This document shows positions 18,315-56,594 of a DNA stretch of 64,000 nucleotides, piece after piece. A model generated the notes under the pieces. The model worked only from the letters and a program-made list of their open reading frames with translations, was not told where the DNA came from and did not search any database. Positions within the stretch are counted from its first letter, which is position 1. Every line of letters begins with the position of its first letter. Source of the stretch: a virus; the IMG/VR virus record IMGVR_UViG_3300006310_000773. One strand, given 5' to 3'. The translations under genes and the position numbers were made by a program.

Positions 18315-18986
18315 ATGGAAATTTTGATTACTGGACACAATGGTTTCATTGGTTCTAATCTCTACAATTATCTTAATTCATATCATAATATTTATGGAAT
18401 TGACTACCCAAATGACATATTAAATACTGAGTTACCTAAAGTTGATTGTGTAATACATTTGGCGGGATCAACAGGCGTCAGAGAAAGTCACAAAAATCCT
18501 AAAAAATATTTAGATAATAATATAAAAATAACTAAAAGAATATTTGATCATTATAAAGATACAAAAATTCTATTTGCATCCACCTCTTCTGTAAAAGAAT
18601 TACAAAGTCCATATGCAATATCAAAATATGCATGTGAACTTATTGCTCCCAAAAACGTTGTTATTATGAGGTTTTTTACTGTTTGGGGAGATTATAATTA
18701 TAGAAAAAATATGTTATATGGACTAGCCATAGAAGGTAAATTAGACTATATTACTGAACATAAAAGAGATTTTACTCATGTATATGAAGTTTGTAGAGCC
18801 ATTAAAATACTAATAGATAAAGGAGTTGGTGGAGAACTTTATGAAATTGGTCACGGAAAACCAATATCCCCCCTTGACTTTTTGAAAAAGATAGGGTATA
18901 ATAAGGTGTTACCGTTTAGGAAAGTTGAAGGTGAATCTAATATAACTTGTGCAGATCCAACTAAAATGGAAGAATTGGGATGGTAA
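18315..18986 (+). CDS. NAD-dependent epimerase/dehydratase (extended SDR)
   Basis: ILITGHNGFIGS, HLAG, ASTSSV, catalytic YAISK and RDFTHV. Confidence 0.85.
   Translation: MEILITGHNGFIGSNLYNYLNSYHNIYGIDYPNDILNTELPKVDCVIHLAGSTGVRESHKNPKKYLDNNIKITKRIFDHYKDTKILFASTSSVKELQSPYAISKYACELIAPKNVVIMRFFTVWGDYNYRKNMLYGLAIEGKLDYITEHKRDFTHVYEVCRAIKILIDKGVGGELYEIGHGKPISPLDFLKKIGYNKVLPFRKVEGESNITCADPTKMEELGW
18874..18902 (+). promoter_or_regulatory. Sigma70-type promoter TTGACT-N17-TATAAT inside the epimerase gene
   Basis: Near-perfect consensus with 17 bp spacer, ~78 bp upstream of the methyltransferase start. Confidence 0.55.
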
Positions 18987-19501
18987 TTGACTACTTTAAA
19001 AATGATTGGAAACCTAATTGGAGCAAATATTCTTATAGCGGTTGGGAACTTCTAAACAAAATATCAAATAATGAAACCATACTTGATATAGGTTGTGGTT
19101 ATAATCTCTTTAAAGGACGTTATGGTGATAAATTATATGGTATTGATCCCGCCAATGACAGTGCAGATGAAGTAATATCTATTGAAAAATTCGATGCTGA
19201 CGGTAAACAATGGGATGTGGTTTTATGTCTCGGTAGTTTAAATTTTGGATCTATAGAAGATGTTGAACCACAAGTACAAAAAGCTGTAAAATTAACCAAA
19301 GTTGGTGGAAGATTATATTGGAGACAAAATCCAGGACTAAATGATCATCGTTGGAAAAATCAAGAAAATATTACATTTTTTCCTTGGACATTTGATCTGA
19401 ATTATAAATGGGCAAAAAAATATGGATGCACAGTTATGGGAATGTTATGGGACGACGCTAGAATTTATTCAGAATGGATTAAGGAGAATGAATGTGTTTA
19501 A
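18980..19501 (+). CDS. Class I SAM-dependent methyltransferase
   Basis: Motifs ILDIGCG, YGIDP, WDVVLC and KVGG. Confidence 0.8.
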   Translation: MVIDYFKNDWKPNWSKYSYSGWELLNKISNNETILDIGCGYNLFKGRYGDKLYGIDPANDSADEVISIEKFDADGKQWDVVLCLGSLNFGSIEDVEPQVQKAVKLTKVGGRLYWRQNPGLNDHRWKNQENITFFPWTFDLNYKWAKKYGCTVMGMLWDDARIYSEWIKENECV

Positions 19502-20594
19502 CTACTGCTTTATAACCTAATCCTTCATTAACAAATCTTACTGCATTTTTTAATGTTGATTCATTTACCGCTTCATACATTCTTTTTATAATAAACTCAG
19601 AGTCTTGTCCAATAAATACCCCATAATTTCCTAATTTTTTTAATCTTTCTTTTTGAAATTCCTCATCGAACCACGTTTTTGTTGCAATTGTTACCATATC
19701 ATGATAATATACACTATCCGTAGTCACAAAAAAACTTTTTTGAATACCATCTCTCCACAATCTCAATAAAACATATGCATCATAAACCTCTCCTTTGGGT
19801 TTAAATCCATGAGTTTGTTCAAATATATAATCGAAACATAATCCTTTAAGTTCAGGATTTGGATCATCTACCCATTGACCTGTTTTATAATTCATTTGAC
19901 AATGATGAAACCATATTTCAAGTTCATTGTTAGATAATGCTTTTTTATATTTTGCATTACCTGTATAATTCTGAAAGGTGTCTCTACTTACATTCAATTC
20001 TCCATTTACAAATGCTACAATCCGCGCTCCTCCACTTTTCATACCTTTAACAATAATTACTCTATCTTTAAAACATTTCATAAATTTATCCATATCATTA
20101 GTCTCTGGACACACCATTAGTCCCGCCGCGAAATGATCTGGTTCTGATCCACCCCCAGGATTAAGTGCGAATTTTTGTTTATGGAATTTTGGATTATAAT
20201 CTATCCTTTTGGGAATAAGCATATTGCCAGGATGAATTAATATTGGTTTATATTTTCTAAAATCATAATTTCCAACATCTTCTAATAATGTTGCCATAGC
20301 ATTTCCACCATGACTAGTCATCATATAATTACCGTATTTCAATTTACTTTCAAATTTTCTTAGAGCATTTTTTCCTCTATTTCCTGGGATATATTTAAAA
20401 TCTATTTGTTCAATATTACCTGATAAATTATTATTCATATGTTTACCCCAAAGCCATGCCCATCTCGAGGTTCCTCCTGGCTTTGGTGAACTAGGAATAA
20501 CTGCGTACATTGTATCAGCATTAACCTGGCTGACCATAACCATTGTACCAAAAACAAACAACATACATAATACTAATTGAATAAATTTAAACAT
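19479..20594 (-). CDS. Divergent tripartite tricarboxylate transporter substrate-binding protein (TctC-like)
   Basis: Signal peptide; PGGTSRWA and IPGNRG resemble TctC motifs; coupled to tctA. Confidence 0.6.
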   Translation of the reverse strand: MFKFIQLVLCMLFVFGTMVMVSQVNADTMYAVIPSSPKPGGTSRWAWLWGKHMNNNLSGNIEQIDFKYIPGNRGKNALRKFESKLKYGNYMMTSHGGNAMATLLEDVGNYDFRKYKPILIHPGNMLIPKRIDYNPKFHKQKFALNPGGGSEPDHFAAGLMVCPETNDMDKFMKCFKDRVIIVKGMKSGGARIVAFVNGELNVSRDTFQNYTGNAKYKKALSNNELEIWFHHCQMNYKTGQWVDDPNPELKGLCFDYIFEQTHGFKPKGEVYDAYVLLRLWRDGIQKSFFVTTDSVYYHDMVTIATKTWFDEEFQKERLKKLGNYGVFIGQDSEFIIKRMYEAVNESTLKNAVRFVNEGLGYKAVVKHIHSP

Positions 20595-22032
20595 AATCCA
20601 CCTTTACTTTTTTACTAAAAATGACCATCAATATTGATAACAACATTATTATAATAACGAATGGTCTTATAATTATTTCTTGAAAACTATACAAATCTAT
20701 CAATTGATATGAAAATTGTTCTAATCTTTCACTCAAAATAAATCCCAACAATACCGCTGGCCTGCTAATTTTAAAATGCTTCAGTATAAACCCACAAAAT
20801 GAAAACACAATAAAAAATATTGAATCTTCTAAAATAAATTCATAAAAATTTGAACTTATTATTGCCCACCATGTAACAAGTGCAACAAATGCTATGAAAA
20901 AATATTTATTGATACGAAATATTTTAGATATCGGCCCGGCTAATAATAATCCAAAAATTGTAACTGAAATAGTGCCGACTAGATAACCAATTATTATAGA
21001 ATTTATAAAATTTTTATCCTCTAATATATATAAATCTCCCATAGGAAATCCAATATATTCCCATAATCCCATCGCGATCATTGCCCATGTTGCACCAGGA
21101 ATACCTATGAGAATAGTGGGTATTAATGCTCCTGCCTTGCCGGCATTATTAACTCCTTCTGGTGCGACTATACCTTCTGGCGCGCCCTTACCAAATGGAG
21201 TTGAAAATACCCTTTTCATTTTTGTCGCTATACTATAAGAAATCCATTCTGAACCGCCACCACCATATCCCGGCAATAGTCCATAGAAAAACCCAATTAA
21301 TCCCCCAACAAAACCATGTTTCCATAAACGTATTGCATCAATTATACCTTTTTTTATTTGTTTAAAGTCACTATTTTCTTTAACAGATTTCATATCAAAT
21401 TTACACAATGTATATAATTCTGGAATACAAAATAATCCTGATGCCAATACTGCAATACCTATACCGTCATAAAGATAATATTCCATTCCAAATGCAAATC
21501 TTGGATTTCCTGTAACATCAGAACCAATTGATCCTAAACCAACACCTATAATTACTGCTAAAATACCTTTTAATGGTTTATTACTTGATAATAAACTTAC
21601 ACTCAAAAAACTAAACAATATAATAACCCACATCTCAGGAACTTTCATATATTGTAAAATATATTCATATAATGGAAGAACAATAAGAAATGGAACAAAC
21701 CAAATAATACCTTGTATACCACTAGTGGTTAATGCTAAACTAATTGCGTAAGAACTTTGTCCTGCTTTGGTGAGTGGGAATCCATCAACCATTGTCGCCG
21801 CAGAAGAATTAGATCCGGGAATTCCAATATAAACTCCTGAAAAACTATCTCCTATTGTGCACGCAACAACCGCTGCCATAGAAAATGCGACAAATTCATA
21901 TGGTATATGTGAAAAATGATTTACAACACTAAACAGCATTATTAATGCTTTGGTGGGCCCTGAAACGGGAATTATGCCTATAAATAATCCATAAAGTGAA
22001 CCCAATATAGTCCACATCAACAATTCAAACAT
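20587..22032 (-). CDS. tctA: Tripartite tricarboxylate transporter permease TctA
   Basis: Polytopic membrane protein; GIPGSNSSAATMVDGFPL, GLLPG, APEGVNNA, IPTILIGIPG and LLGFIL. Confidence 0.9.
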   Translation of the reverse strand: MFELLMWTILGSLYGLFIGIIPVSGPTKALIMLFSVVNHFSHIPYEFVAFSMAAVVACTIGDSFSGVYIGIPGSNSSAATMVDGFPLTKAGQSSYAISLALTTSGIQGIIWFVPFLIVLPLYEYILQYMKVPEMWVIILFSFLSVSLLSSNKPLKGILAVIIGVGLGSIGSDVTGNPRFAFGMEYYLYDGIGIAVLASGLFCIPELYTLCKFDMKSVKENSDFKQIKKGIIDAIRLWKHGFVGGLIGFFYGLLPGYGGGGSEWISYSIATKMKRVFSTPFGKGAPEGIVAPEGVNNAGKAGALIPTILIGIPGATWAMIAMGLWEYIGFPMGDLYILEDKNFINSIIIGYLVGTISVTIFGLLLAGPISKIFRINKYFFIAFVALVTWWAIISSNFYEFILEDSIFFIVFSFCGFILKHFKISRPAVLLGFILSERLEQFSYQLIDLYSFQEIIIRPFVIIIMLLSILMVIFSKKVKVDYV

Positions 22033-22047
22033 AATTTTTATAATTCT

Positions 22048-22482
22048 TTATACGGGAAATACTTCTTTAGCTTCATTATTAAATATAATTTGACAATTAT
22101 CACATACTCTCTTTGCATAGTCATTTGCATCAGGAATACCTGTCTCACTTATAATATAATGTGCTTTCTCTACTGTTCTAGTCCACCCAATTCCCGCAGG
22201 CAATGTATCAAGAGGTTCATCTTTTATTTGGTCCCATCTTTTGTCAGAAAATATAAATGTTTTTTGAAATCCATTTCCATTTTGCGTAAGCTCGTCAGTT
22301 ACTACTAAATCACCATTTTCTAGATCATCATTTATATCATTGTCAGATGCCAGTAGATACTGTCCTTTGGCGGCTTCGATGTCATCACTGAACATTGCTA
22401 AAGCCTCAGATAAAGTTTCAAATGATGAAAAATCTAATTTTGAAAAAGATTTTTGAAAAGTTATAATAAGTCTTGCAGACAT
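22048..22482 (-). CDS. Hypothetical protein (paralog of 22530-22922)
   Basis: ORF with RBS and late-promoter motifs upstream; shares the ELT..GF.....D.RW...GW.R pattern with its neighbour. Confidence 0.55.
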   Translation of the reverse strand: MSARLIITFQKSFSKLDFSSFETLSEALAMFSDDIEAAKGQYLLASDNDINDDLENGDLVVTDELTQNGNGFQKTFIFSDKRWDQIKDEPLDTLPAGIGWTRTVEKAHYIISETGIPDANDYAKRVCDNCQIIFNNEAKEVFPV

Positions 22483-22495
22483 TTTAAATTCCTTT

Positions 22496-22523
22496 TATTT
22501 ATATGGTTACATTTATATTTATA
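22496..22523 (-). promoter_or_regulatory. Two tandem T4-type late promoters TATAAATA (22496-22503, 22516-22523)
   Basis: Two exact consensus copies in a 47 bp intergenic gap. Confidence 0.65.
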
Positions 22524-22529
22524 TAAAGT

Positions 22530-22922
22530 TTAAATTTCTATTCGATTCCATCCGTTTCCTACTACAGGAACTGGAATTGATTGAACAATTGCCCATCGTT
22601 CATCAGTCCATGTTCTAGTAATTTTAAAACCAGTTTTGTCGACTGTCAATTCTTGTATGTGTTTTTCATACAGATAAGAATTCCAGGAATCATCTATCTC
22701 GTCGCCCCCTTTTGCTATCGTCCTAATTTCTTTTACTCCAGCGCCTTCTATTACTTTTTTAAATTTCGTATTAATTCCTAAAGTCTTAGATTGGGAGAGC
22801 TCCGCATCGAATGTATTAACTATATGAGGATTCGCCTTCTCAAATGCCATCTTTGCTTCCACGACAGTTGAATAAGTAGTTCCTGTAATATTTGTGAATA
22901 TGACTATGGTTGTTACTGACAT
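22530..22922 (-). CDS. Hypothetical protein (paralog of 22048-22482)
   Basis: See the neighbouring ORF. Confidence 0.55.
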   Translation of the reverse strand: MSVTTIVIFTNITGTTYSTVVEAKMAFEKANPHIVNTFDAELSQSKTLGINTKFKKVIEGAGVKEIRTIAKGGDEIDDSWNSYLYEKHIQELTVDKTGFKITRTWTDERWAIVQSIPVPVVGNGWNRIEI

Positions 22923-22924
22923 TT

Positions 22925-23533
22925 CTATTCTTCTTCGTATATAATGTAGTCCTTATATTTGTTGATACTTCTTTTTAAAATTTCATAGTGTTTTTGTTTA
23001 TTAACCCAAAAATGAGTAAAAAGTATAAATCTATCAGGATCATAATTACCACCATGAGTTGTATCTGTACTTCGTATAACACACCAATCAGTATCTATTG
23101 GCATTTTAGCTAAAACTGTTTCTCCATTATTTTTTTGAATATAAGGATTTTTAATATTGTTATCATATTGTATTGTCATTCGATAGCCACATGGTTGTAA
23201 ACTTTTTTCATGTTTCCATAAATCTGCGTTTTTATCTGGTGTTAAAAAATCAATATGCATTTCAGTAGCCTTTAAATAATTATTAATTCTAACATTAACT
23301 AGATGATCAATTGGTAAATTTTTATCAATATATTTTGTTAGAGAAGATTCTTCAATCCACGATGATTTACTATAATTTTTATTTGTTGTAGTAAATTTTT
23401 GATATTGAAATGCTTGAGCACCTGTTCCATCATCCGGCGGTGAGTCACCAACAAAATTATCTATAAGATCTTTTTTATATTGATATTTTGGAATGTCGAC
23501 TGGCATCCATAAAATATTATCAAAATTATTCAT
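22925..23533 (-). CDS. Putative Fe(II)/2OG oxygenase-like (cupin) protein
   Basis: HxD (MHID) with a distal H (THGG) and a following Arg. Confidence 0.4.
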   Translation of the reverse strand: MNNFDNILWMPVDIPKYQYKKDLIDNFVGDSPPDDGTGAQAFQYQKFTTTNKNYSKSSWIEESSLTKYIDKNLPIDHLVNVRINNYLKATEMHIDFLTPDKNADLWKHEKSLQPCGYRMTIQYDNNIKNPYIQKNNGETVLAKMPIDTDWCVIRSTDTTHGGNYDPDRFILFTHFWVNKQKHYEILKRSINKYKDYIIYEEE

Positions 23534-23542
23534 ATTTCTTTC

Positions 23543-24124
23543 TTAACGTTTTTTAAATACAGTCATAAAATGTCTTTGTTGTCCTTCATCTTCAGTAAGT
23601 ATAGAATCAACTTTTTCCGAAGAAATAATATCCAAATATTCTTGATCTCTCCATCCAAATGCTGTAAGAGGATCATCATTTCCATGAGCTGATACTGATG
23701 CTACCATCATTCCATTTTTTTCTAAAGAATCTGAAAAGAATTTTGCTGTATCTGATTGAAGATGTGATTTGTTAAATCCTCCAATAATTGTTATACATTT
23801 ATATTTTCTTGGTAATGGAAATTCTTTCATATCATGCAAAATTATGTCACGATAATTAGTCGCCTCAAATGTATCAATCATTTTTTGATTAACATCATAT
23901 CCATCTATAATATAATCATTATTATTAAAACCAATACCAATCTGACCATTACCACATGCAACATCTGCTATTTCAGTACCTAATTCAAAATTCCTTTTTA
24001 CCCAATCACATGCATAACGTATAGGACCTTCCATCCAACCGACCTTCATTGTCCAAGCGTGATAATCCCAATCCTTATATAATTCTTCAACACTTTTACT
24101 ATAAACTTCATCAAGCCAAGTCAT
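23543..24124 (-). CDS. Class I SAM-dependent methyltransferase
   Basis: Motifs ELYKDW, IADVACGNG and DGYDVNQKM. Confidence 0.8.
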   Translation of the reverse strand: MTWLDEVYSKSVEELYKDWDYHAWTMKVGWMEGPIRYACDWVKRNFELGTEIADVACGNGQIGIGFNNNDYIIDGYDVNQKMIDTFEATNYRDIILHDMKEFPLPRKYKCITIIGGFNKSHLQSDTAKFFSDSLEKNGMMVASVSAHGNDDPLTAFGWRDQEYLDIISSEKVDSILTEDEGQQRHFMTVFKKR

Positions 24125-24127
24125 ATT

Positions 24128-25009
24128 TTATTCCTTTATAATAGTTGTGTAATCAAATGCGACTCTCCATAATTCTCTAGACTTATTCACAACATGTGAA
24201 CGTCTATGTATAGTATACAATTGATCCATAATTAATAAATCTCCCTTTTTAAATACAAAATGTTTTTGATATATTGACCTATCTAATATTTTTTTAAGTT
24301 TATCTTTTATAATATTTACATCTATCAACTTTCCATTTTTCCATGCCTTTTCTGTTAAAGATGGTTGCCAATATAAAAATTCTTCTCCACCAATTGGATG
24401 AACATTCACAATTGACATGCGTTCATCTCCCTTATGATGTGCCGGAATAGTATAATCTTTCACAACAGCAATCTCATTATCCTTGCCGGCCATTGTGTAT
24501 TTCACTTCATGCGCCATCATGTTCCCAATTGCTTCCCGGTCAGCCCGATCCTTTTGTGCGTCATCTATAGATCCGAATACGCCATAATTAAAATTATTTA
24601 ATTGTATTTCAACAGTACGCCAGTAATCTTTTTCATTATTAGGTAAATCTAAAAAAGATCTTCTTTGATCTAATAAACTAAAAACAGTATCACGACATTC
24701 TTCCACACAATACAAAGCAGTTAATATTTCTTTAAAATCTCCTATATGTATCATAGTACCATCCCCATGCCACTCTAAATCTGCCATACCAAACAAACCT
24801 TTATACATTACTCTCGATATATCTGGATTATCTTTTGGATTAAAAGGCATGTAACCCAACACATCATCGTCTGTATTTCCTATACGCCTACAATAATTAA
24901 CTAATTGAGATTGAGTTAAATTCTGTTCGTGATAAAAAGTATAGCCATGTTTTAATACTTTCTGTATTTCTGATTTTAATTCTAAATCTGTAAATTCTAA
25001 TACTTGCAT
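24128..25009 (-). CDS. TauD/TfdA-family Fe(II)/2OG dioxygenase
   Basis: EWHGDG, VHP..GE, GDLLIMDQLYTIHRR and RELWR. Confidence 0.85.
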   Translation of the reverse strand: MQVLEFTDLELKSEIQKVLKHGYTFYHEQNLTQSQLVNYCRRIGNTDDDVLGYMPFNPKDNPDISRVMYKGLFGMADLEWHGDGTMIHIGDFKEILTALYCVEECRDTVFSLLDQRRSFLDLPNNEKDYWRTVEIQLNNFNYGVFGSIDDAQKDRADREAIGNMMAHEVKYTMAGKDNEIAVVKDYTIPAHHKGDERMSIVNVHPIGGEEFLYWQPSLTEKAWKNGKLIDVNIIKDKLKKILDRSIYQKHFVFKKGDLLIMDQLYTIHRRSHVVNKSRELWRVAFDYTTIIKE

Positions 25010-26434: not shown

Positions 26435-26880
26435 ATTTTCTCTTCAGGATAATACCACCATCCAGCATCTGGTTCATATTTAAATATCGATATTCCCACT
26501 CTTTCAGTTTCAATATTTTCTATTGAATGTTCTATACCAGCATTAAACTTGTGCCATTTTTTTTCTGGTATACATGTTCTATAAAGTTCTTTACCTTTGT
26601 CCCACCACACAGTTTCTACATTGCTGCCACCTGCTTGTAAAATATAATTATAATTTGTAGTCCTATCAACATCAATATGTTTGGGTATACCATTTCTTAA
26701 AATTTGATACTTGAAATTATCACATTCAGGAAATAAATGTTTTAGAAAATTTGTTAACTCATCTTCACAATAATAAATTCCGTATATTTCTTTATTTCCT
26801 GGCCAAATATTTTCTTTTAATTTTATTGATTCAGTATCTAAAAAACAAGGTGGGCCTGGTAAATCTAAAAATTCAATCAT
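26431..26880 (-). CDS. Putative Fe(II)/2OG oxygenase-like (cupin) protein
   Basis: KHIDVDR ... HSIENI ... R pattern. Confidence 0.5.
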   Translation of the reverse strand: MIEFLDLPGPPCFLDTESIKLKENIWPGNKEIYGIYYCEDELTNFLKHLFPECDNFKYQILRNGIPKHIDVDRTTNYNYILQAGGSNVETVWWDKGKELYRTCIPEKKWHKFNAGIEHSIENIETERVGISIFKYEPDAGWWYYPEEKI

Positions 26881-33450: not shown

Positions 33451-33456
33451 AATTAA

Positions 33457-45476: not shown

Positions 45477-46834
45477 AATTCTGGAAAAACTTTTTCAAAT
45501 TGTTTATGTGGTCTTAATCTATTTAAATGTGAAATATATTCTTGAAATTCGGGAAGTCTTTCAGACCAATCTTCATCATCCATGAAATTTAATAGTCCTT
45601 CATATCTTTTAATTCCATAGGATGAATTTGCCCAATCATCAAATTCTATATTTTCTACACCGGTACATAATTTCCAATTATCTTCCATCCAAGGGAAAAA
45701 CTCTTCTTCATATTTCTCTCTAATTTTATATTTTAATTCTTTTGGTATTATTTTAACATTTAATTGTGGTGGCCAATATGCCAAATGACAATTGATCATT
45801 CCTGCTCCCCCAGGCCATTTATTTATTTTCTTATATCCTTGCTGAACTTTCCAAGATATAAATTCTGGAAGATAATTAATACTCAATGCCATAATAGTTG
45901 TTGCGGTTGTTACTGTAATATTATCATCAGTCTGATCCATTAATTTTAAATTCTTTTCAATAATTTTCCATCTACTAGGATAGCGAATATAATCATTATA
46001 CTTTCCCCAACTATCTATTGAAAAATGAAATATTACATGTTTAAATTCACTCCACAACTTAAATAACTTATCTGGTAATTCAATACCATTTGAATTATAT
46101 CTTAATTCAATTTTAGGAGCATAGCCCATTTCAATTACTTTTTCAAGTAAGGTATAATGCTCGTCAATAATAGTTGATTCACCTCCTGCAAAATATAATT
46201 GATAAATGTTTGGTATTTGTTCATATAAATCTTCCCAAAAATGAGGACTCATTTTATGCCAATTATACGTTCCGCCGTCTTCATTTTTTTTCCATTGACT
46301 AGTATCTTTCAATCTTTCATTTTTTATTTTAGGATAAAAATCTAACCACTCTTTATTCCATCCAGAAGAATCATTTGGAGAACACATCACACAAGCCAAT
46401 TGACATTTACTTCCCATTCGTAAGTCAATATATCTAAGTTTGGGGGCAACTGATCCATCTTCATTTGTGTTTTTTACTAATTCATTTAAATCATAAATTT
46501 CTCCCCATTTATTAGTTTCCCAAACTCTTTTAGGAATATGGCCCGCATCTTCTTCTTTAAAACATTTTTCACATTGAGGAGGGCGTTCACCTTTCATCAT
46601 CATCAATCTAGTACGCCTCATATAATCATTATTCCACGCATCTAATAATCGAGTGGTATTTAAATTAGCACATTGGCCATCTTCATTTCTTATATTTGCT
46701 TTTGTTCTTATGGAAGAATTTGGATCTTGAACAGCAGACGCATTCGCAGTACAACATACTCTCATATGTCCGTTGGGTCTTGTTGATAAATGTATCCACG
46801 GCAATGCGCAAAAAGTGGGGGAAGGATAGTCCAT
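45455..46834 (-). CDS. Radical SAM protein with N-terminal twitch/SPASM-like domain
   Basis: FCALPW...VCC...CEKC, then CQLACVMC, AGGES and YIRYPS. Confidence 0.9.
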   Translation of the reverse strand: MDYPSPTFCALPWIHLSTRPNGHMRVCCTANASAVQDPNSSIRTKANIRNEDGQCANLNTTRLLDAWNNDYMRRTRLMMMKGERPPQCEKCFKEEDAGHIPKRVWETNKWGEIYDLNELVKNTNEDGSVAPKLRYIDLRMGSKCQLACVMCSPNDSSGWNKEWLDFYPKIKNERLKDTSQWKKNEDGGTYNWHKMSPHFWEDLYEQIPNIYQLYFAGGESTIIDEHYTLLEKVIEMGYAPKIELRYNSNGIELPDKLFKLWSEFKHVIFHFSIDSWGKYNDYIRYPSRWKIIEKNLKLMDQTDDNITVTTATTIMALSINYLPEFISWKVQQGYKKINKWPGGAGMINCHLAYWPPQLNVKIIPKELKYKIREKYEEEFFPWMEDNWKLCTGVENIEFDDWANSSYGIKRYEGLLNFMDDEDWSERLPEFQEYISHLNRLRPHKQFEKVFPELCIDMMK

Positions 46835-46843
46835 AATTGTCTC

Positions 46844-46877
46844 ACTAAATATTAATAATCATATACTTTTATTTATG
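46844..46877. promoter_or_regulatory. Divergent late-promoter-like motifs: ACTAAATA (+, 46844-46851) and CATAAATA (-, 46870-46877)
   Basis: Each lies ~36 bp upstream of the first gene of its operon, in a 53 bp gap; same spacing as the motif at 7722. Confidence 0.55.
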
Positions 46878-46887
46878 CTATTAAAAT

Positions 46888-47640
46888 ATGACTAATTTTT
46901 TTTGTTTGAAGTGGGGAAATAAATATCCTCCAAAATATGTGAATCGATTATTCAATTCTTTAAAAATACACTATAATAATTCTTTTAATTTTCATTGTTT
47001 AACAGAAAATTCTAAAGGATTAAATAAAGATATTGAAATAAAACCAATTCCTACAACATTCGATGAATTTCCAAGAACTCAAATTTTCACTTCAGAAAAA
47101 ATGTGTTATTTTGGAGATTATGCTAACATGTCAGGTAAAAAGGCATGGTTTGATTTAGATATATTGATTCAAAATAACATAACAAAATACATACACAAAA
47201 ATCATCCAAAACCAAAATTTATTTGGAATTATTGGAGAGATTCATTGGCCTCAAAATTAAATTATGGATATTTAACAACTCCTATAAATTCTTCATTTGT
47301 TGCTTGGGATAATGATGCTGGATATGAAATGTATGAAAATTTATTAAAAACAAAAAAGGAAGCATTCTTTTCATATCCATCTTTCGATAAACTCATATTT
47401 TATCAATGTCATCGCAAAAAAATGGTAGATTTCTGGCCTCCAACCACTGCCTATAATTACAATATAGGTGCAAAATTTCCAAATGATATGACTCCAAAAG
47501 AATATAAAAAACGTTATAAAATATGTCTATTCAATACTTCACATAAAGCATGGGCAAAAGAACATGAACAACATGTAGAATTGCATGATGCACAAGGATG
47601 GGCAAAAGAATTATGGGAAAGTTATAATGTCATCTTATGA
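46888..47640 (+). CDS. Glycosyltransferase (GT-A, nucleotide-diphospho-sugar transferase)
   Basis: CLKWGNKY...YVNRL, FHCLTE, FDLDILI (DxD) and INSS. Confidence 0.8.
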   Translation: MTNFFCLKWGNKYPPKYVNRLFNSLKIHYNNSFNFHCLTENSKGLNKDIEIKPIPTTFDEFPRTQIFTSEKMCYFGDYANMSGKKAWFDLDILIQNNITKYIHKNHPKPKFIWNYWRDSLASKLNYGYLTTPINSSFVAWDNDAGYEMYENLLKTKKEAFFSYPSFDKLIFYQCHRKKMVDFWPPTTAYNYNIGAKFPNDMTPKEYKKRYKICLFNTSHKAWAKEHEQHVELHDAQGWAKELWESYNVIL

Positions 47641-48160
47641 AACTTTATTAAAAACAAAACATAAAAAATTTAAATATTTAATTGAATATTCTAATAATAA
47701 AGATGTTCAAAAAATATCATGGCGAGTATTTGACGAAATCATGATACATTATGAAGAAGAGCCCGTACATTTTTTATGTAGTTGGTTCTGTCATATAGAA
47801 GTGGATGATTTTGAATTATTCGGTTATAAGTGCTATTATTATGATATAGATCCTATGGTATGCAAAATTAATAAATTAATAACAAAGAATGTTATTAATA
47901 AAGATGTCATATTTGATGATGTTAAAATAGAAGACGGTATAATTGTAAATAAATATTGTGAAACATGTTATCCTGTTGGTAGAAAGTTCTCAGGAAAGTT
48001 TGTTTTAGTTGGTTCTGATAATCCACATCTATCTTGTATTAATCCGATAAATAGTTGTCAACAAATTATAGATCAAAATCAATTAACAACAATTCATTAT
48101 AAAACTGAAATAAAAGGTAAACATAATTATTATTTGGTGGTAGGATGCAATCAACTATAG
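47585..48160 (+). CDS. Methyltransferase-fold-like protein (likely start 47627), paralog of 48145-49038
   Basis: LCSWF, YDIDP, VNKYCE and CIN.I motifs shared with the next ORF. Confidence 0.45.
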   Translation: MMHKDGQKNYGKVIMSSYETLLKTKHKKFKYLIEYSNNKDVQKISWRVFDEIMIHYEEEPVHFLCSWFCHIEVDDFELFGYKCYYYDIDPMVCKINKLITKNVINKDVIFDDVKIEDGIIVNKYCETCYPVGRKFSGKFVLVGSDNPHLSCINPINSCQQIIDQNQLTTIHYKTEIKGKHNYYLVVGCNQL

Positions 48161-49038
48161 AAAAATTAAAAAAATTTGAAGATAATATTGAAAAGAAAAA
48201 TCAAGAAATTAGAGATTCTGCAGGAAATATTAGAAAAACTATTGGAAAATTAAAAAATGATGTTAGAAAAACTATTGGAAAATATAAAACAAATATTGGA
48301 AAAAATAAAAAACATGTAAGTGATACCACAAAAAAAATTAATAAATTACCATATCATAAAATAGAACAATGGATAATAAACAATCAGGTTGGTAGTTTAG
48401 AAAGTTATCAAGATTCTTTATCACATGGACAATTATCTTCAAAACAATGGTTAGTTAACAAATTACCCAAAGGAAAAGATTTATATCTTGAAGTTATTTC
48501 AGACGGAACGCCAACTATTTTAGGATATACACAACATTTGCCTTTGGTCAATAGTGAAGGTAATACTGACCCATACCCTGAATCATCTTTATATATTGAA
48601 ATTATTGGTGGATGGTTTGGTTGTCCATTAATAGATCTGTTACATTCTAAATTAGAAATAAAAAAAATAGACTTTTATGAAAAAGATGAATTATGTAAAA
48701 AAATATTAGCACAATATCTAAATCATTTTGAATTTCCCTTTGAGGTTTCTATTTTCGGAGATTTTTTTGAAAGAAAAGAAATTAGACGTAGAGATTTAAT
48801 CATTAATACCTCAGGAGAACATATGGAAGATATTATAAAAATGAAACATTATTTTAAAGGAAATCCTGTAGTTGCTATACAATCAAATGATTATTTTGGA
48901 TTAGATGAACATATCAATTGTGTTCATAATGTTGAAGAATTAATTGAAAAAAATCAAATTAAAAATGTGGTATATAAAGGTGAATTAGATTTTCCAAAAT
49001 ATACAAGATATATGACCATAGGTCACTGGTATGTTTAA
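48145..49038 (+). CDS. SAM-dependent methyltransferase-like protein
   Basis: GQLSSKQWL, IIGGWFG, FYEKD, DLIINTSGEHM, QSNDY and HINC. Confidence 0.55.
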   Translation: MQSTIEKLKKFEDNIEKKNQEIRDSAGNIRKTIGKLKNDVRKTIGKYKTNIGKNKKHVSDTTKKINKLPYHKIEQWIINNQVGSLESYQDSLSHGQLSSKQWLVNKLPKGKDLYLEVISDGTPTILGYTQHLPLVNSEGNTDPYPESSLYIEIIGGWFGCPLIDLLHSKLEIKKIDFYEKDELCKKILAQYLNHFEFPFEVSIFGDFFERKEIRRRDLIINTSGEHMEDIIKMKHYFKGNPVVAIQSNDYFGLDEHINCVHNVEELIEKNQIKNVVYKGELDFPKYTRYMTIGHWYV

Positions 49039-49666
49039 ATATGCGGTTGCATGTATATGTGTTGGTGACAAATACAATGTAAAAGATGTAAAACGTTTAG
49101 AAAAAATGGTTTTTGAAAATACCACATATAATATAAACTTTCGAGTATTTGATGAACCTATTCTTCCCAAATGGTGGACTAAAGTTTTATATCATTCCCC
49201 AATGATAGAACCATTTGAAGAAGAAGTCGTTTTAGCTTTTGATTTAGACGTGATCATAAAAGGAAACATAGATCCCCTATTTGATTGGGTAGAACAACAA
49301 GATTATTTGTGTGCATGTTGGTGTAGGTGGAGAGAACATATGGAAGATTTTGAAAAACGCCGGTCACAAAAAGAATGTTGCACCCCCTATAACTCTTCTA
49401 TATTAGGATGGAAACCAAACAGCAGTTTAAAAGTGTGGGAGAAATTTGAATTTGAAGATATTGAAAAATGTGGTGGATTTGATACATATCTTTGGATGAA
49501 ATATCTTGATCCCATTCGTATACCAGACCATTTTTATTATTCTGCTAGTTATTCTAATTATCAAGAATTAGATTATCCAATAGCCATTTTTAATAAAGGA
49601 TATTCTGATGGACTAGAAAAGGAAGAAATATATTCTACTGTTCCTTGGACTAAAAAATATATCTAA
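49031..49666 (+). CDS. Glycosyltransferase (GT-A)
   Basis: CVGDKY, WWTK, FDLDVII and YNSS; paralog of 46888-47640. Confidence 0.75.
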   Translation: MFKYAVACICVGDKYNVKDVKRLEKMVFENTTYNINFRVFDEPILPKWWTKVLYHSPMIEPFEEEVVLAFDLDVIIKGNIDPLFDWVEQQDYLCACWCRWREHMEDFEKRRSQKECCTPYNSSILGWKPNSSLKVWEKFEFEDIEKCGGFDTYLWMKYLDPIRIPDHFYYSASYSNYQELDYPIAIFNKGYSDGLEKEEIYSTVPWTKKYI

Positions 49667-50334
49667 TACCAAACACCATTAGGACTTTCATGAACTAATC
49701 CTATATCCTCTTTTAAAACTTCATTACAAAATTCCACATCATCATGAAAATCATTATTCATCATAAATCCTATTGAAAATCTATTACAGTCCGTTCCTGC
49801 ACAATGCCAAGCATATTCTTTTTTTTCTTCAACATGATCTAAATGACTAGTAATTTTCATAGATTTAATATTCCATCCTGCAGAATCTTGATATTCTTCA
49901 ATTTTTTTTGAATCACCATAAACTTTAAAAATACCATCACCTGTTTCTGACCAAGAAAATATTATATTTTTGCCTGGGATATTCGCATTATGATGCCAAG
50001 CAATATATCCACCAGGAGGATAATGTTGACATAAAGGACTTCTTCTTGCTCCCACTAAAGAAGCTAATTTAGTTGACAATTTTAAAAGTTCTTCATGAGG
50101 TTCAGAAGCTTCCAGACCAAAATCATTTGATAATATATGTGTAGGCCCGCCAGAGCCTGAATCACCTTCCATTATATTAAACAAATATTCATCAGAAATA
50201 GCCTCTTCTTTTGAAATTATTTCTCTTTTATTTCTATCTTCAATATTTCCATCACTTTTAATAAAATCGAATACAAAAGGTTCAAATAATTTTAAAATTT
50301 TTAAAATATCTTGTGGTATATCTTTTTCAATCAT
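49663..50334 (-). CDS. Fe(II)/2OG oxygenase-like protein
   Basis: YPPGGYIAWHHN ... WHCA ... RFSIG. Confidence 0.6.
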   Translation of the reverse strand: MIEKDIPQDILKILKLFEPFVFDFIKSDGNIEDRNKREIISKEEAISDEYLFNIMEGDSGSGGPTHILSNDFGLEASEPHEELLKLSTKLASLVGARRSPLCQHYPPGGYIAWHHNANIPGKNIIFSWSETGDGIFKVYGDSKKIEEYQDSAGWNIKSMKITSHLDHVEEKKEYAWHCAGTDCNRFSIGFMMNNDFHDDVEFCNEVLKEDIGLVHESPNGVWY

Positions 50335-51058
50335 GCCAACCTGTTCCTTTGGGATAACTTAAAAATACAATATCTGAATAATTAACATTTTCTATTTCAC
50401 AATCATATCCTGGTGCTGTAAAATTCCATAAACAATCGTCATTTTTTGTTGTATTAAAATACCAATTCCATTTTATATCATTTCTGTACCATTCATCTTC
50501 TTTATCACATAACATTAAATGTAATGGAAATTGATCCCACATTTCAACAGGACCTTTCTCATATTTAAAATCCCATCTTGAATGCCAATTATGCTTCATC
50601 TTCCATTGCCAATTATTCCACCATTCCTCCATAAATGTTTTCATTTTTTTATTATTTTTCCAAACAAAAGCACCACCATGAGGTCTTTCTTCTTCATGAA
50701 TGTTCCACCAACATGCTGATGCACAATAAGGTCTAATTTTCGTAAAAACTATATCATTATCACAAAGTGCTTCAAATACATTATTTGCATTGTCTGATAA
50801 ACAAACTACATCAGCATCTAAAAAACATGTAATATCATAGGGGGTTTTTGTTAATGCCCACAATTTAGCCCTGATTGTTTTAGGAGCACCACCAATAACA
50901 TTGTCAAATATATGATTTCCTGGATCTAAGATCCATTCATTGTCAGTAACTAATGTGATTGGATATTGTGTATATTCTTTTATGCTGTCGGCGAGGAGTT
51001 GTGCCGCAGTAAGAAATCTTTTATTTTTGGAAGCGACAACAAGAAATCCATTATTCAT
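50327..51058 (-). CDS. Glycosyltransferase (GT-A, GT8-like); likely start MNNGF at 51058
   Basis: LADSIK, KLWALTKTPYDITCFLDADV and WDQF. Confidence 0.75.
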   Translation of the reverse strand: MNNGFLVVASKNKRFLTAAQLLADSIKEYTQYPITLVTDNEWILDPGNHIFDNVIGGAPKTIRAKLWALTKTPYDITCFLDADVVCLSDNANNVFEALCDNDIVFTKIRPYCASACWWNIHEEERPHGGAFVWKNNKKMKTFMEEWWNNWQWKMKHNWHSRWDFKYEKGPVEMWDQFPLHLMLCDKEDEWYRNDIKWNWYFNTTKNDDCLWNFTAPGYDCEIENVNYSDIVFLSYPKGTGWHD

Positions 51059-51518
51059 TTTCTTCAATTGCTGGTTTGAGAACATTTCCCCATTCAGTAA
51101 GACCATGAATTGGATCACTGATTGATTTTAGTAATAATACAGTAACCCATGCATTTAATTCTACAAGATTTGTTGATTTTCTTATTTTGGAACGAAGAAT
51201 TTTATCTTTAGACTCTTTCACTTCTGATATTTCAAATGCTTTTAATTTTGTATCAAATAATGTTTTTAAATCATCTTGAGCTTTATCTGATTCTTCTTCT
51301 TTTTTTTGATTTATTATTTTTCTTTGAGAATGGGCATGTGAGAAATCATCTATTTCTTTAGGAGTAAATTTTTTGAAAAATTCTTCCCAATGTTCTGTTC
51401 CTACAGAGGTTTGTATCGAATATGTATCATCATCATTTGCGTTTTTTAATAAAATTGCAATAGAGGTTTTTTCAGAATTAGTCCAAATTCCTTCAACCAC
51501 TTCATCACTAAATATCAT
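51051..51518 (-). CDS. Hypothetical phage protein (possible fibre assembly helper)
   Basis: ORF directly downstream of the repeat-bearing virion-like gene; LFDTKLKAFEI..V motif. Confidence 0.5.
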   Translation of the reverse strand: MIFSDEVVEGIWTNSEKTSIAILLKNANDDDTYSIQTSVGTEHWEEFFKKFTPKEIDDFSHAHSQRKIINQKKEEESDKAQDDLKTLFDTKLKAFEISEVKESKDKILRSKIRKSTNLVELNAWVTVLLLKSISDPIHGLTEWGNVLKPAIEENE

Positions 51519-51534
51519 AATTTATCCTATTATA

Positions 51535-52629
51535 TTATCCAATTCTCTTATAAAGATTATAAGCGTTTATAACGTTAGAGCTTCCATCATTTTGAATTGT
51601 AGCTCCTGTCCAATACCCAGTATATTGTCCAGTATATTGCCCGCTATATTGTGTACCATATTGTCCAGTATACCACGGCCCGTATCGAGCTCCACCAAAA
51701 TTTCCATATTGTACTCTATATTGTCCTGACCACTGACCAGTATATTGTCCGGTATATTGTCCGCTATATTGTGTAGAATATTGTTGATTTGCTACAGAAC
51801 ACATATAGTCAGTGAATCCCCCAACTTGTGTCCAAGTTCCAGATCCAGATGCTGATCCCGTTTTTATTTCATAATCTCCCACATTATTTCCACCACTGCC
51901 TCCAGTAATACGATTTATCCAATGTGCGACTAATGTTTCTATTTCCGCATCTGTCATTTCTTGAACATCTCCACCAGTTCCCTTATATTTTACTGGTTGA
52001 AAGCTTCCCACACTACCTGTAGAAGTTTTTCTCCAAAGATAAATATTTGTGCTATGTGAATCTTGTGCGGTGGTTTGTGCATAGTCTATATGTTCTCCAC
52101 CAGAAGGGGGGTTAGTTCCTGTTGTAACATTTATCCACGTTCCTCCTAATGAACCTGAGGGCTCGCTTGCTCCCAAATAATATGTACCAACTCCTGTATT
52201 ACTTCCCGTTAAAACATATACTTCTTGACAACATCTCATAATATCATCTACCAATTTAGCGGCATTCATTTCTTGTAAAACGCCCGATCCTTCCCAAGCT
52301 AAAGGCCACACCTCTCCTCCTGTGGCTTCTGCAGAATTATCATTCGCTGCAAGACCATATTCACTGATTGTAGAAGATCCACTACCAGTAGGATGATACC
52401 CCACAGCATCATCTCTTTTAGTATCAATGAAGTATCCTAAATTTCCAGTTGTAGTTGTTGCTCTTAATTGAATGTTTCCGCGTTGTGCATCAGATTGGTC
52501 ACTTGCCCATTTTGCTAAAATAACAGGAACAATTTTATCCTTTATATCAGCATCTGTCATTTCTCTTAAACTGCTGTTACCTGGGTCTAAATCTGATACC
52601 CACAACGGTCTGTTATCACCTGCCGCCAT
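51535..52629 (-). CDS. Virion/fibre-associated protein with three internal repeats and a C-terminal (QY/WxG)n aromatic repeat
   Basis: Gly/Ser/Thr-rich; three P..-(L/V)(R/Q)EM repeats; QYSTQYSGQYTGQYTGQWSGQY...YTGQYGTQYSGQYTGQYTGYWTG. Confidence 0.65.
   Translation of the reverse strand: MAAGDNRPLWVSDLDPGNSSLREMTDADIKDKIVPVILAKWASDQSDAQRGNIQLRATTTTGNLGYFIDTKRDDAVGYHPTGSGSSTISEYGLAANDNSAEATGGEVWPLAWEGSGVLQEMNAAKLVDDIMRCCQEVYVLTGSNTGVGTYYLGASEPSGSLGGTWINVTTGTNPPSGGEHIDYAQTTAQDSHSTNIYLWRKTSTGSVGSFQPVKYKGTGGDVQEMTDAEIETLVAHWINRITGGSGGNNVGDYEIKTGSASGSGTWTQVGGFTDYMCSVANQQYSTQYSGQYTGQYTGQWSGQYRVQYGNFGGARYGPWYTGQYGTQYSGQYTGQYTGYWTGATIQNDGSSNVINAYNLYKRIG
51604..51786 (-). repeat. 12-bp-period coding repeat, including two 47-bp direct repeats (51617-51663 and 51737-51783)
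   Basis: Recurrent tatattg unit every 12 bp; the two 47-mers are 120 bp apart and differ at 4 positions. Confidence 0.9.
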
Positions 52630-53629: not shown

Positions 53630-53634
53630 TTTTA

Positions 53635-56584: not shown

Positions 56585-56594
56585 GTGTTAATCC

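Follow-up and report, generated by a model that had tools for sequence, protein, structure and literature searches.

What do the radical SAM enzymes, oxygenases, and glycosyltransferase-like proteins encoded among the structural genes of an uncultured marine T4-like phage (myovirus) act on? We addressed this question in a 64,000-nucleotide stretch of viral DNA (IMG/VR record IMGVR_UViG_3300006310_000773), called here the window. An earlier reading made without database searches (the sequence-only reading) had treated positions 18315 to 52629 as one system, proposed to cross-link, hydroxylate, and glycosylate a virion protein in a RiPP-like manner, with the adjoining QY(T/S)G repeat protein as the best substrate candidate. 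A phage-borne tailoring pathway is indeed present in the structural region, as are the more than 30 mostly coupled genes described for it: the interval contains 36 open reading frames (ORFs) of at least 100 amino acids (aa), mostly on the minus strand, with stop and start codons that overlap or abut. The gene content is real, but the single unit proves to be an accessory island merged with a core module.

17511-18257, minus strand: gp13-like neck/head-tail adaptor (phrog_211, E value of 7e-38), the conserved island boundary
18315-49666: accessory island (~31 kb)
49663-52629: core module (repeat protein, 155-aa protein, GT-A-like transferase, and 2OG-like DSBH protein)
52643-53629 and 54140-56584, minus strand: fiber-like proteins (PHROG matches)
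within 52643-62806, minus strand: 171-aa ORF on the fiber side
56795-62806, minus strand: VrlC-like protein (2003 aa), the conserved fiber-side boundary

Genes similar to gp13, gp14, and gp15 (PHROG matches) flank one side of the island, and the VrlC-like protein flanks the other. The site, between the VrlC/fiber-side genes and the neck gene gp13, is the hypervariable "host recognition cluster" hotspot; the account of pelagimyophages and cyanomyophages by Zaragoza-Solas et al. (2020; PMC7029224) places the cluster at this same site, from VrlC/fiber to the neck genes, and also describes it as hypervariable. Four dioxygenase genes lie at the equivalent site in HTVC008M, to which the phage of the window is only distantly related (portal, ~77% nucleotide identity; VrlC, 32% amino acid identity with 85% of the query aligned). 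In relatives, the island site spans only 0.8 to 6 kb. Three loci (L025, L026, and L028) have the order gp6-VrlC-fiber-repeat protein-155-aa protein-GT-A-DSBH, with gp13 within 0.8 kb, and in four others (L054, L060, L062, and L070) the gap from the DSBH gene to gp13 measures 4.9 to 6.0 kb. The core-module genes were always together in the related contigs sampled, the repeat protein co-occurring with the GT-A-like and 2OG-fold genes in 53 of 53 and 68 of 68 loci. The core module is a universally conserved unit on the fiber side, separate from the accessory island.

The main operon of the island is a radical SAM operon (29949-46834, minus strand) with the following genes, in which "N-twitch" denotes an N-terminal-twitch radical SAM domain.

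29949-30980, minus strand: radical SAM protein
30977-32281, minus strand: N-twitch protein
32278-33450, minus strand: unannotated protein
33457-34833, minus strand: N-twitch protein
34830-37292, minus strand: N-twitch domain fused to a PLP aminotransferase-like domain (820 aa)
37279-41517, minus strand: unannotated N-terminal domain (510 aa) with two N-twitch units
41504-42157, minus strand: Asp/Arg hydroxylase (clear Asp_Arg_Hydrox HMM match)
42150-42458, minus strand: SPASM part, split from its radical SAM core
42455-43828, minus strand: unannotated protein
43825-44415, minus strand: radical SAM core, its SPASM part separate
44415-45476, minus strand: radical SAM-SPASM protein
45455-46834, minus strand: N-twitch protein, the first gene of the operon

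The earlier count of nine radical SAM domains was confirmed (nine CxxxCxxC motifs in eight ORFs). Pfam Radical_SAM matches all eight; the match of 33457-34833 is below the cutoff, yet this ORF passes NCBIfam NF033640, the N-terminal-twitch model, to which six domains score 251 to 396 bits (curated cutoff, 170 bits). SPASM matches were obtained in four ORFs. As in NF033640, the window's domains carry a four-Cys module ahead of the CxxxCxxC core, but they differ in being fused to the PLP domain, to one another, or to the 510-aa N-terminal domain. We found no member of NF033640 that is characterized or has an assigned substrate, and no solved structure in or close to the family. The cores show generic similarity to the peptide maturases SkfB, PapB, and WgkB, with weak HMM similarity spanning the core. 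The PLP domain predicted by the sequence-only reading is present as the C terminus of the 820-aa protein, keeps the SLSK lysine motif in an alignment to ACC synthase, and in loci L078 and L080 is a stand-alone ORF adjoining the cassette. This fusion suggests an oxidize-then-aminate step.

Whether the radical SAM enzymes act on the repeat protein can be judged from the core module, where the repeat protein was found next to the island as described.

51535-52629, minus strand: aromatic-tetrad repeat protein (364 aa)
51051-51518, minus strand: 155-aa protein
50327-51118, minus strand: GT-A-like protein with an invariant DxD
49663-50334, minus strand: DSBH/2OG-oxygenase-fold protein with an invariant H-x-N...H...R

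In the repeat protein, eight x[Y/W]xG tetrads form two runs, the N-terminal part has three EMTDAEI-type domains, and the C-terminal tail is conserved; the fold model of the protein (pLDDT of 70 overall and <50 in the repeat region) gave no structural match. Among the 22 distant repeat-protein loci that extend 5 kb or more downstream, none has an N-twitch radical SAM gene; 4 of 39 GT-seeded loci do, all four from the window's own clade, and the repeat family was absent within 10 kb of all 22 radical SAM cassette loci of other phages. The radical SAM-bearing loci have the fewest repeats (2, 6, and 8 tetrads, versus a median of 21.5). This missing covariation is the outcome that the sequence-only reading had itself named as refuting its proposal, here for the radical SAM enzymes. 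The Tyr-repeat protein is not a coevolving radical SAM substrate. The aromatic position holds either Tyr (67%) or Phe (33%), an exchange more in keeping with a residue of a structural core than with a conserved site for Tyr-specific modification.

The RiPP-like model draws on a feature of known maturase systems (such as SkfB, PapB, and PqqE), a radical SAM core accompanied by auxiliary Fe-S domains of the SPASM/twitch type, and it would account for the Asp/Arg hydroxylase-family genes and for the location of the island, which follows a late-type motif and lies within the structural module. However, the island contains no detected free-standing small precursor ORF, RRE/PqqD domain, peptidase, or exporter, lacks the substrate covariation, and has one radical SAM domain joined to an aminotransferase, a class of enzymes that act on small keto compounds. 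We consider the model highly improbable, and a small molecule, which the sequence-only reading had listed as an alternative, fits better. The strict linkage of the repeat protein to the GT-A-like and 2OG-fold genes also speaks for its modification, and these two neighbors may therefore decorate it.

The remaining genes of the island bear on what such a small molecule could be.

18315-18986, plus strand: short SDR NAD-dependent epimerase/dehydratase (Pfam Epimerase, 1.3e-21)
18980-19501, plus strand: methyltransferase-like protein (match below cutoff)
19479-20594, minus strand: 371-aa signal-peptide protein, translationally coupled to TctA
20587-22032, minus strand: TctA large membrane subunit (Pfam TctA, 1.7e-78, full profile covered)
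22048-22922, minus strand: two small proteins (144 and 130 aa), weak paralogues
within 22925-29995, minus strand: unannotated 202-aa protein
23543-24124, minus strand: methyltransferase-like protein
24128-25009, minus strand: TauD-family dioxygenase (HMM-supported)
25010-26434, minus strand: ANL adenylating enzyme (AMP-binding; HMM-supported)
26431-26880, 26873-27559, and 28165-28737, minus strand: unannotated proteins
27507-28202, minus strand: short ANL fragment, A3-A8 (AMP-binding HMM)
28686-29330, minus strand: PP-loop/QueC-like ATPase (HMM-supported)
29327-29995, minus strand: Asp_Arg_Hydrox-like protein (weak match)
46888-47640 and 49031-49666, plus strand: GT8-like/GT-A-like paralogues (family A5) with an invariant DxD
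within 46888-49666, plus strand: unannotated 191-aa protein
48145-49038, plus strand: 297-aa protein, whose relatives accompany a minimal radical SAM pair in other phages

HMM searches thus bear out the epimerase, the QueC-like protein, and the two adenylation enzymes (one a short fragment) claimed earlier. They give no support for GNAT or SGNH domains, and all methyltransferase matches fell below the cutoff. Among the approximately six oxygenases proposed, three are HMM backed (24128, 41504, and, weakly, 29327) and one is fold backed (49663-50334); the others were not confirmed. The three proposed glycosyltransferases (46888, 49031, and 50327) have the invariant DxD on which their assignment mainly rests, but belong only to remote GT-A/GT8-like families (E values of 0.002 to 0.2). 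Weaker NCBIfam matches of the epimerase are to sugar-nucleotide epimerases and dehydratases. The 144- and 130-aa proteins match each other (pairwise BLASTP E value of 3e-6) and no family.

The predicted late promoters were recovered in part. On the minus strand, the late-promoter-like ATAAATA is enriched between genes (P = 3e-7): 7 of its 22 matches fall in intergenic gaps, which make up 2.2% of the window. One copy (46870-46876, minus strand; context CATAAATA) lies 36 nt ahead of the gene that opens the radical SAM operon, and two TATAAATA motifs (22496-22503 and 22516-22523, minus strand) precede the 144-aa gene (before 22482); neither plus-strand operon is headed by a late motif. The motif heading the main island operon is the one found before structural genes, and judging from these motifs the island is most likely expressed late.

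A diffusible cofactor-, antibiotic-, or aminocyclitol-type compound, made from a TctA-imported precursor and attached to no macromolecule, would suit the ANL, PP-loop, TauD, and aminotransferase enzymes, which are natural-product pathway types. The TctA gene is coupled to that of a secreted protein, which gave no HMM match and may be the binding protein of the system; TctA likewise lies downstream of the radical SAM cassette in a second lineage (L080 to L082), and in L080 a 37%-identical homologue of coding sequence in 18315-19501 adjoins it. A free-metabolite reading has also been given to a cyanophage that encodes an aminotransferase together with an amidinotransferase and a radical SAM enzyme (PMC12801897). 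Yet the searches turned up neither an exporter nor a carrier protein nor a core synthase, transferase-like genes consistently adjoin the cassette, and TctA might instead be an auxiliary metabolic gene that is unrelated to the pathway and merely shares the hotspot, which makes a free product decidedly unlikely. Complex base modification shielding the phage DNA from host nucleases is very improbable. Thymidine hypermodification pathways reportedly employ radical SAM and PLP enzymes, and the island has the QueC-like protein and one radical SAM domain with weak QueE/MoaA/viperin-like similarity; however, it lacks DpdA/TGT, QueD, FolE, a base hydroxymethylase, a DNA kinase, and a DNA glycosyltransferase family, lies in the virion module rather than in the nucleotide-metabolism module, and is missing from close relatives that share the replication and structural backbone.

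The surroundings of the cassette point to sugars. Beside orthologues of the 45455 gene, surveyed in seven distinct contigs, all phage-like, we found UDP-glucose/GDP-mannose dehydrogenase genes in four, DegT-type aminotransferase (weak) and carbamoyltransferase genes in two each, and recurrent PP-loop enzymes, and no peptidase, RRE domain, or ABC exporter. Of the 39 related loci, 32 carry family A5, usually as four copies adjoining the core module. Such GT8-like arrays, common at this site, and the sugar-nucleotide genes would also suit a change made to the LPS, O-chain, or capsule of the infected host, perhaps as a superinfection block, and the dispensable, hypervariable island is what arms-race cargo would look like. 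An envelope change is argued for GT8-type genes of pelagimyophage host recognition clusters in PMC7029224. Against this stand the late-type motif and the virion-gene position, ill suited to early competitor exclusion, and the window has no detected flippase, polymerase, or lipid-carrier transferase; envelope remodeling is thus possible but unlikely.

The island is both dispensable and maintained. NF033640 matched nothing in the records from which L026 and L028 come, but had nine matches (six above the curated cutoff) in the near-identical record G001, a 97%-identical relative in which the TauD gene is lost through an in-frame 756-nt gap and the orthologue of the 26873 ORF carries two stops. 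The island is kept in a 97 to 98% identical relative, with a pooled pN/pS of 0.17 versus 0.33 for flanking structural genes; its genes are under purifying selection. Large radical SAM complements are known from other T4-like phages, with 11 to 12 genes per phage in CP220/CPt10 (PMC2853527) and the environmental marine genome TARA_ERS488813_N000010 (PMC5332604), and five in the Campylobacter phages CP220/CPt10 form an interchangeable, apparently nonessential module (PMC2853527). These phages have other hosts and belong to other lineages; a tblastn search of cultured phages with the window's best N-twitch domain gave four weak matches, none to a Campylobacter phage. Compared with the host recognition clusters described, the radical SAM part is unusually large (nine domains in 17 kb). 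PMC7029224 gives radical SAM cassettes no function, and the repeat-protein/GT-A/DSBH module was not found in the passages searched.

Our tentative reading, with a probability of roughly 0.42, is that the island, distinct from the repeat-protein module, is cargo acquired at the hotspot and serves to tailor a small molecule, most likely of the sugar, aminosugar, or cyclitol type. The sugar logic derives from the PLP fusion with its lysine motif, the SDR epimerase, the sugar-gene neighbors, and the GT8-like arrays. The remote transferase assignments, the generic peptide-maturase likeness, and the small survey (seven contexts, all phage-like) count against it, as do the ability of Asp/Arg beta-hydroxylase-family enzymes to use protein substrates, the absence from the window of a sugar-activating nucleotidyltransferase, flippase, or polymerase, the fact that NF033640 has no member with an assigned substrate, and the reading of late timing from a sequence motif.

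In 2-deoxystreptamine aminoglycoside biosynthesis, the twitch-type radical SAM dehydrogenase BtrN acts before an aminotransferase. The fusion of a twitch radical SAM domain to a PLP aminotransferase in the window would fit the same conversion of C-OH to C=O followed by amination. The analogy is one of mechanism, not of family membership; no specific sequence relationship of the window's enzymes to BtrN is known, and their twitch module is N-terminal. The N-twitch enzymes would perform oxygen-independent C-H chemistry on a sugar, aminosugar, or cyclitol-type compound, and the fusion protein would oxidize and then aminate it. The adenylating enzymes, PP-loop ATPase, methyltransferase-like proteins, SDR epimerase, and Fe/2OG hydroxylases could add further decorations, and TctA might bring a carboxylate precursor into the cell. 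For joining the product to an acceptor, possibly a protein of the virion or else the host envelope, the likeliest means would be the neighboring GT8-like/GT-A-like transferases.

Almost all genes in the window lie on the minus strand, and the structural genes identified by PHROG matches were as follows.

15757-16662, gp15-like gene (neck and sheath-stabiliser genes)
16662-17507, gp14-like gene (neck and sheath-stabiliser genes)
17511-18257, gp13-like gene (neck and sheath-stabiliser genes)
62810-63937, baseplate wedge gene

A 2003-aa protein (56795-62806) showed 32% identity, over 85% of the query, to a protein annotated VrlC in the Pelagibacter phage HTVC008M. The portal fragment at the start of the window shared ~77% nucleotide identity with HTVC008M and with the Methylophilales Melnitz phages, and megablast searches against cultured phages gave no match anywhere in the island. 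On the basis of these sequence matches, the source of the window is an uncultured T4-like marine myovirus. Zaragoza-Solas et al. (PMC7029224) locate a hypervariable "host recognition cluster" in the interval from VrlC to the neck genes. The island occupies this position, between the VrlC/fibre genes and the neck genes gp13/gp14, and the content of the site is non-syntenic among related phages.

Comparison with related loci delimited the island. In three of them (L025, L026, and L028), the gene order was wedge, VrlC, fibre-like gene, repeat protein, 155-aa protein, GT-A-like protein, and DSBH protein, followed by gp13 within 0.8 kb. The gap between this module and gp13 was 4.9 to 6.0 kb in four other loci and 31 kb in the window. 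Because the gap varies among relatives, we assigned 18315-49666 to the accessory island and 49663-52629 to the backbone. A reading of the sequence alone (the sequence-only reading) had proposed one tailoring island at 18315-52629; the larger part of that range stands, and its last 3 kb is conserved backbone. These clean empty-site comparisons identify the radical SAM (rSAM) cassette as optional cargo. In HTVC008M (56402-59681), four 2OG/phytanoyl-CoA (PhyH) dioxygenase genes and a putative ferrochelatase gene lie on the opposite strand directly before the neck gene, which makes this a general insertion site for cargo of the oxygenase type.

The island is not an assembly artefact, since a 75-kb relative from another metagenome (G001) was colinear with window positions 14758-64000 at 97-98% nucleotide identity and carried the same rSAM set. 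Against G001, pooled pN/pS was 0.17 in the island and 0.33 in the structural genes on its flanks, and this sequence divergence indicates that selection maintains the island genes. Parts of the island are being lost: a gap in G001 (window 24245-25000) of exactly 756 nt (252 codons) deletes, in frame, nearly the whole TauD-family gene, and the G001 ortholog of 26873-27559 contains two stop codons. Both genes look dispensable on this comparison. The pS values were patchy, at 0.19-0.28 in 18315-18986, 28165-28737, 42150-42458, 45455-46834, and 49031-49666 and <=0.03 in most genes neighbouring them, a pattern that suggests gene-sized recombination patches inside the island. Between two fibre-like genes, a 171-aa ORF with a TTG start (53635-54150) had a pN/pS of 4.3 against G001 and 22% identity to its counterpart in a more distant locus, L094; either it evolves rapidly or the gene call is wrong.

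Nine CxxxCxxC motifs were spread over eight ORFs, bearing out the nine rSAM domains counted previously. All eight ORFs matched Pfam Radical_SAM, one of them (33457-34833) below the cut-off there, yet passing NF033640, and four had SPASM matches. Six domains scored above the curated cut-off (170 bits) of the NCBIfam model NF033640, "twitch domain-containing radical SAM protein" (here N-twitch rSAM), over the full model.

30977-32281, N-twitch rSAM, 263 bits
33457-34833, N-twitch rSAM, 251 bits
34830-37292, N-twitch rSAM (PLP fusion), 336 bits
37279-41517, double N-twitch rSAM, 569 bits (sum of two units)
45455-46834, N-twitch rSAM, 396 bits

In the alignment of the six units, C9, C27, C88, and C91 were invariant, as was the C144/C148/C151 motif, so that a four-Cys module lies N-terminal to CxxxCxxC. 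PDB sequence searches with the rSAMs returned only generic core matches (SkfB, NifB, and MoaA) or nothing. The PLP domain proposed earlier proved to be the C-terminal part of the 820-aa rSAM protein (34830-37292): its last 330 residues resemble viral class I/II aminotransferase clusters, and their alignment with ACC synthase (E 0.039) spans the PLP-lysine motif SLSK; agreement at this motif is the stronger argument. Another rSAM is split into separate, translationally coupled ORFs, a 196-aa core (43825-44415) and a 102-aa SPASM part (42150-42458), with a 457-aa unknown ORF between them (within 42150-44415); in the loci L016 and L078, its homolog is a single ORF of ~310 aa. A selfish-insert reading of the 457-aa ORF is unsupported because a different cassette, that of L083, includes a 271-aa relative as an ordinary gene.

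HMM matches also supported the TauD gene and two Asp/Arg hydroxylases, of which one match is clear and the other weak. Of two AMP-binding enzymes, one is complete and the other a fragment. A PP-loop/QueC-like protein, an SDR epimerase/dehydratase of short length, and a TctA transporter subunit of full length had HMM support as well. Thus, the epimerase, TauD, and QueC-like assignments of the sequence-only reading were confirmed. Its two adenylation enzymes are both AMP-binding by HMM, one as a fragment only, and its pair of Asp/Asn-hydroxylase-like proteins is clear for one member and weak for the other. We considered a frameshift in the second ANL enzyme and found no ANL similarity in the flanking ORFs. 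The three claimed glycosyltransferases correspond to remote GT-A/GT8-like families identified chiefly by an invariant DxD. The GNAT and SGNH domains were not reproduced with Pfam/PHROGs, and all methyltransferase matches fell below the cut-off. Pfam and PHROG searches of the unknown ORFs yielded nothing usable, even at relaxed E-values. Of the three subunits of a tripartite tricarboxylate transporter, TctA is clear; a 371-aa signal-peptide protein coupled to it matched no TctC model, and no TctB-like hydrophobic ORF was seen. TctA directly follows the gene for a 144-aa protein, which is weakly paralogous to a 130-aa protein (22048-22922); relatives of these two small proteins were absent from all fetched loci.

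The rSAM enzymes had been proposed to modify the adjacent QY(T/S)G-repeat protein (51535-52629) in a RiPP-like manner, and co-variation of rSAM copy number with the repeat gene had been suggested as a test. We fetched IMG/VR loci containing relatives of the repeat protein (58 loci) or of the best N-twitch rSAM (19 loci). The N-twitch rSAM profile of the window matched no ORF of 53 distant repeat-protein loci, including the 22 that extend at least 5 kb beyond the module (0/22); the first rSAM of the window starts 2.8 kb beyond it. In an independent set of loci seeded with the GT-A-like protein, N-twitch rSAMs were present in only 4 of the 39 with at least 5 kb downstream, namely the window's clade and the more distant member L094. 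In the other direction, the repeat, DSBH, and GT8-like families were found within 10 kb of none of the 22 rSAM cassettes of other phage lineages. We counted 2626 repeat tetrads over 123 distinct repeat proteins (0 to 94 per protein; median, 21), and rSAM-bearing loci had 2, 6, and 8. The check thus revealed no co-variation. Neither direction of the co-occurrence comparison nor the repeat lengths favoured the repeat protein as the rSAM substrate, and it was rejected in that role.

The aromatic position of the tetrads was Tyr in 67% and Phe in 33%, followed by Thr (39%), Ser (17%), Val (16%), or Ala (15%). Such a pattern would be expected of a beta-rich fibre segment that varies in length and has an aromatic core, and is not that of a conserved Tyr-specific modification site. 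The AlphaFold model of the protein (pLDDT 70) left the fold unsettled because the repeat region scored <50 and a Foldseek search against BFVD returned nothing below E 0.07. Its status as a virion protein is therefore assigned from position only. Many relatives carry two or three tandem repeat-protein paralogs (e.g., L026, 11338-13233; L028, 11371-13110), the longest reaching 1837 aa with 94 tetrads (L065); the window has one short copy.

The hallmarks of a RiPP system were also sought. No precursor peptide gene was detected: the ORFs of >=25 aa in 18300-49700 beyond the main genes were all nested inside them, and the intergenic gaps of the island (<=57 nt) contained no free-standing small ORF. 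No island protein had a Pfam or NCBIfam match to an RRE/PqqD-like domain at the HMM level; the N-terminal extension of the N-twitch rSAMs is the four-Cys twitch module. No leader peptidase or dedicated exporter was detected in the island, where the sole transporter is the TctA-family uptake subunit. A conserved 73-74-aa ORF directly upstream of an rSAM pair in three other cassettes (L080, 8673-8897; L083, 7593-7817; L079, 6105-6326) was rejected as a precursor; it is not hypervariable, being ~70% identical between lineages, and has no counterpart in the window. The island therefore differs from RiPP rSAM maturase systems in lacking a precursor, RRE/PqqD, peptidase, exporter, and enzyme-substrate co-occurrence. 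The island is real; the RiPP-like mechanism proposed for its rSAM enzymes is not supported.

The exact T4 late promoter, TATAAATA, showed no overall enrichment in the window; two tandem exact TATAAATA motifs precede the 144-aa gene of the 22048-22922 block. On the minus strand, 7 of 22 ATAAATA matches fell in intergenic gaps, which make up 2.2% of the sequence (p = 3e-7). These copies lie 14-79 nt upstream of gene starts, mostly in the virion-gene part of the window; the first rSAM gene has one copy 36 nt ahead of it, and two copies precede 22482.

The gene content of the cassettes provided other clues to the substrate. The cassette is modular: a pair composed of an rSAM-SPASM protein (like that at 44415) and an N-twitch rSAM (like that at 45455) recurs at 45-60% identity in many phage contigs, often accompanied by a protein like that at 48145, and the remaining rSAMs vary. 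Pfam-labelled neighbours of the 45455 orthologs in seven distinct contigs (78-336 kb) included UDP-glucose/GDP-mannose dehydrogenase (4/7), DegT-type aminotransferase (2/7, weak), carbamoyltransferase (2/7), PP-loop proteins, B12-binding rSAMs, and, once, TctA. In the window, the SDR epimerase/dehydratase represents the sugar-nucleotide modifying enzymes; Pfam, NCBIfam, and PHROG searches of the island detected no nucleotidyltransferase for sugar activation and no flippase or polymerase. As for DNA hypermodification, the weak QueC/TilS/AsnB-type PP-loop match is the sole family of the 7-deazaguanine/DNA-hypermodification pathways found in the island, and the partners DpdA/TGT, hydroxymethylase, and DNA kinase were not detected there. 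Several features suggest a small substrate, probably of sugar type: an aminotransferase domain fused to an rSAM, an SDR epimerase, enzymes of the adenylating and PP-loop classes, and transferase-like genes flanking the island both in the window and in L094. BtrN acting with an aminotransferase follows an oxidise-then-aminate logic. By analogy, the fusion suggests that such a step would take place in the island, and the substrate would be a small keto or amino compound.

A strict association was found in the backbone module (49663-52629). It encodes the repeat protein and the 155-aa protein, together with the GT-A-like protein, whose DxD is invariant, and a 2OG-fold protein with the invariant set H-x-N...H...R. 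The GT-A-like seed family has at least 544 relatives in IMG/VR. Among related T4-like marine contigs (L025-L077 and L090-L165) with enough sequence, a repeat-family ORF lay upstream of the GT-A-like gene in 53 of 53 loci and the DSBH gene downstream in 68 of 68. GT8-like paralogs, usually four, occurred in 32 of the 39 loci that extend 5 kb or more downstream. The DSBH protein has a 2OG-oxygenase fold, with AlkB and P4H as top matches at modest TM-scores and an unusual H-x-N...H...R set. The two GT-like families, A2 and A5 (the latter comprising the GT8-like paralogs), each have an invariant DxD. Their Pfam matches were sub-threshold (GT2 in 8/25 members; GT8 in 2/25 and 1/33), the match to LgtC had an E-value of 0.22, and hhalign gave no significant relationship between A2 and A5. 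A tblastn search with the repeat protein against cultured phage records found no relative. Throughout the sampled related contigs, the repeat protein was accompanied by both enzymes; the module therefore has firmer grounds than the rSAM island as a candidate for virion decoration. One possibility raised by this linkage is that the repeat protein is decorated by its two invariably linked neighbours, perhaps with a donor that the island produces.

Modules with multiple rSAMs have been described in T4-like phages from 2010 onwards: CP220 and CPt10 carry 11-12 rSAM genes, of which five belong to an interchangeable module (PMC2853527), and a marine T4-like genome has 12 (PMC5332604). The host recognition cluster site and rSAM cassettes at it also appear in passages of a published study (PMC7029224); the repeat-protein/GT-A/DSBH module was not found in the passages searched in that article. 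The new elements are the delimitation of the island by empty sites, the co-variation test with its negative outcome, the rSAM-PLP fusion as a clue to mechanism, and a module that is strictly conserved.

N-twitch rSAM cassettes abound in uncultured aquatic phages: for a single ortholog, the protein collection contained >2,300 relatives (E <= 1e-10). The NF033640 scan of the genome collection hit one contig only (L078, PAAV01000055.1, 161 kb), labelled a Chloroflexota MAG, with about ten N-twitch rSAM genes in 21 kb, among them an ortholog of 45455-46834 at 58% identity. This contig may derive from a phage and have been binned with a bacterial MAG. We know of no NF033640 member with a known substrate. 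The presence of 15-30 kb of oxygen-sensitive Fe-S enzymes in phages infecting hosts in oxic seawater is a biochemical puzzle.

Our data separate the rSAM cassette from the conserved module of repeat protein, GT-A-like protein, and 2OG-fold protein. We tentatively propose, at a probability of slightly less than one in five, that the module and its variable GT8-like array carry out phage-autonomous glycosylation of a fibre-side virion protein, with the island supplying a radical-tailored donor sugar. In the window's clade, this donor would be aminated, alkylated, or acylated and would come from the 31-kb island. If true, the adsorption apparatus of these phages would display a glycan made by oxygen-independent radical chemistry.
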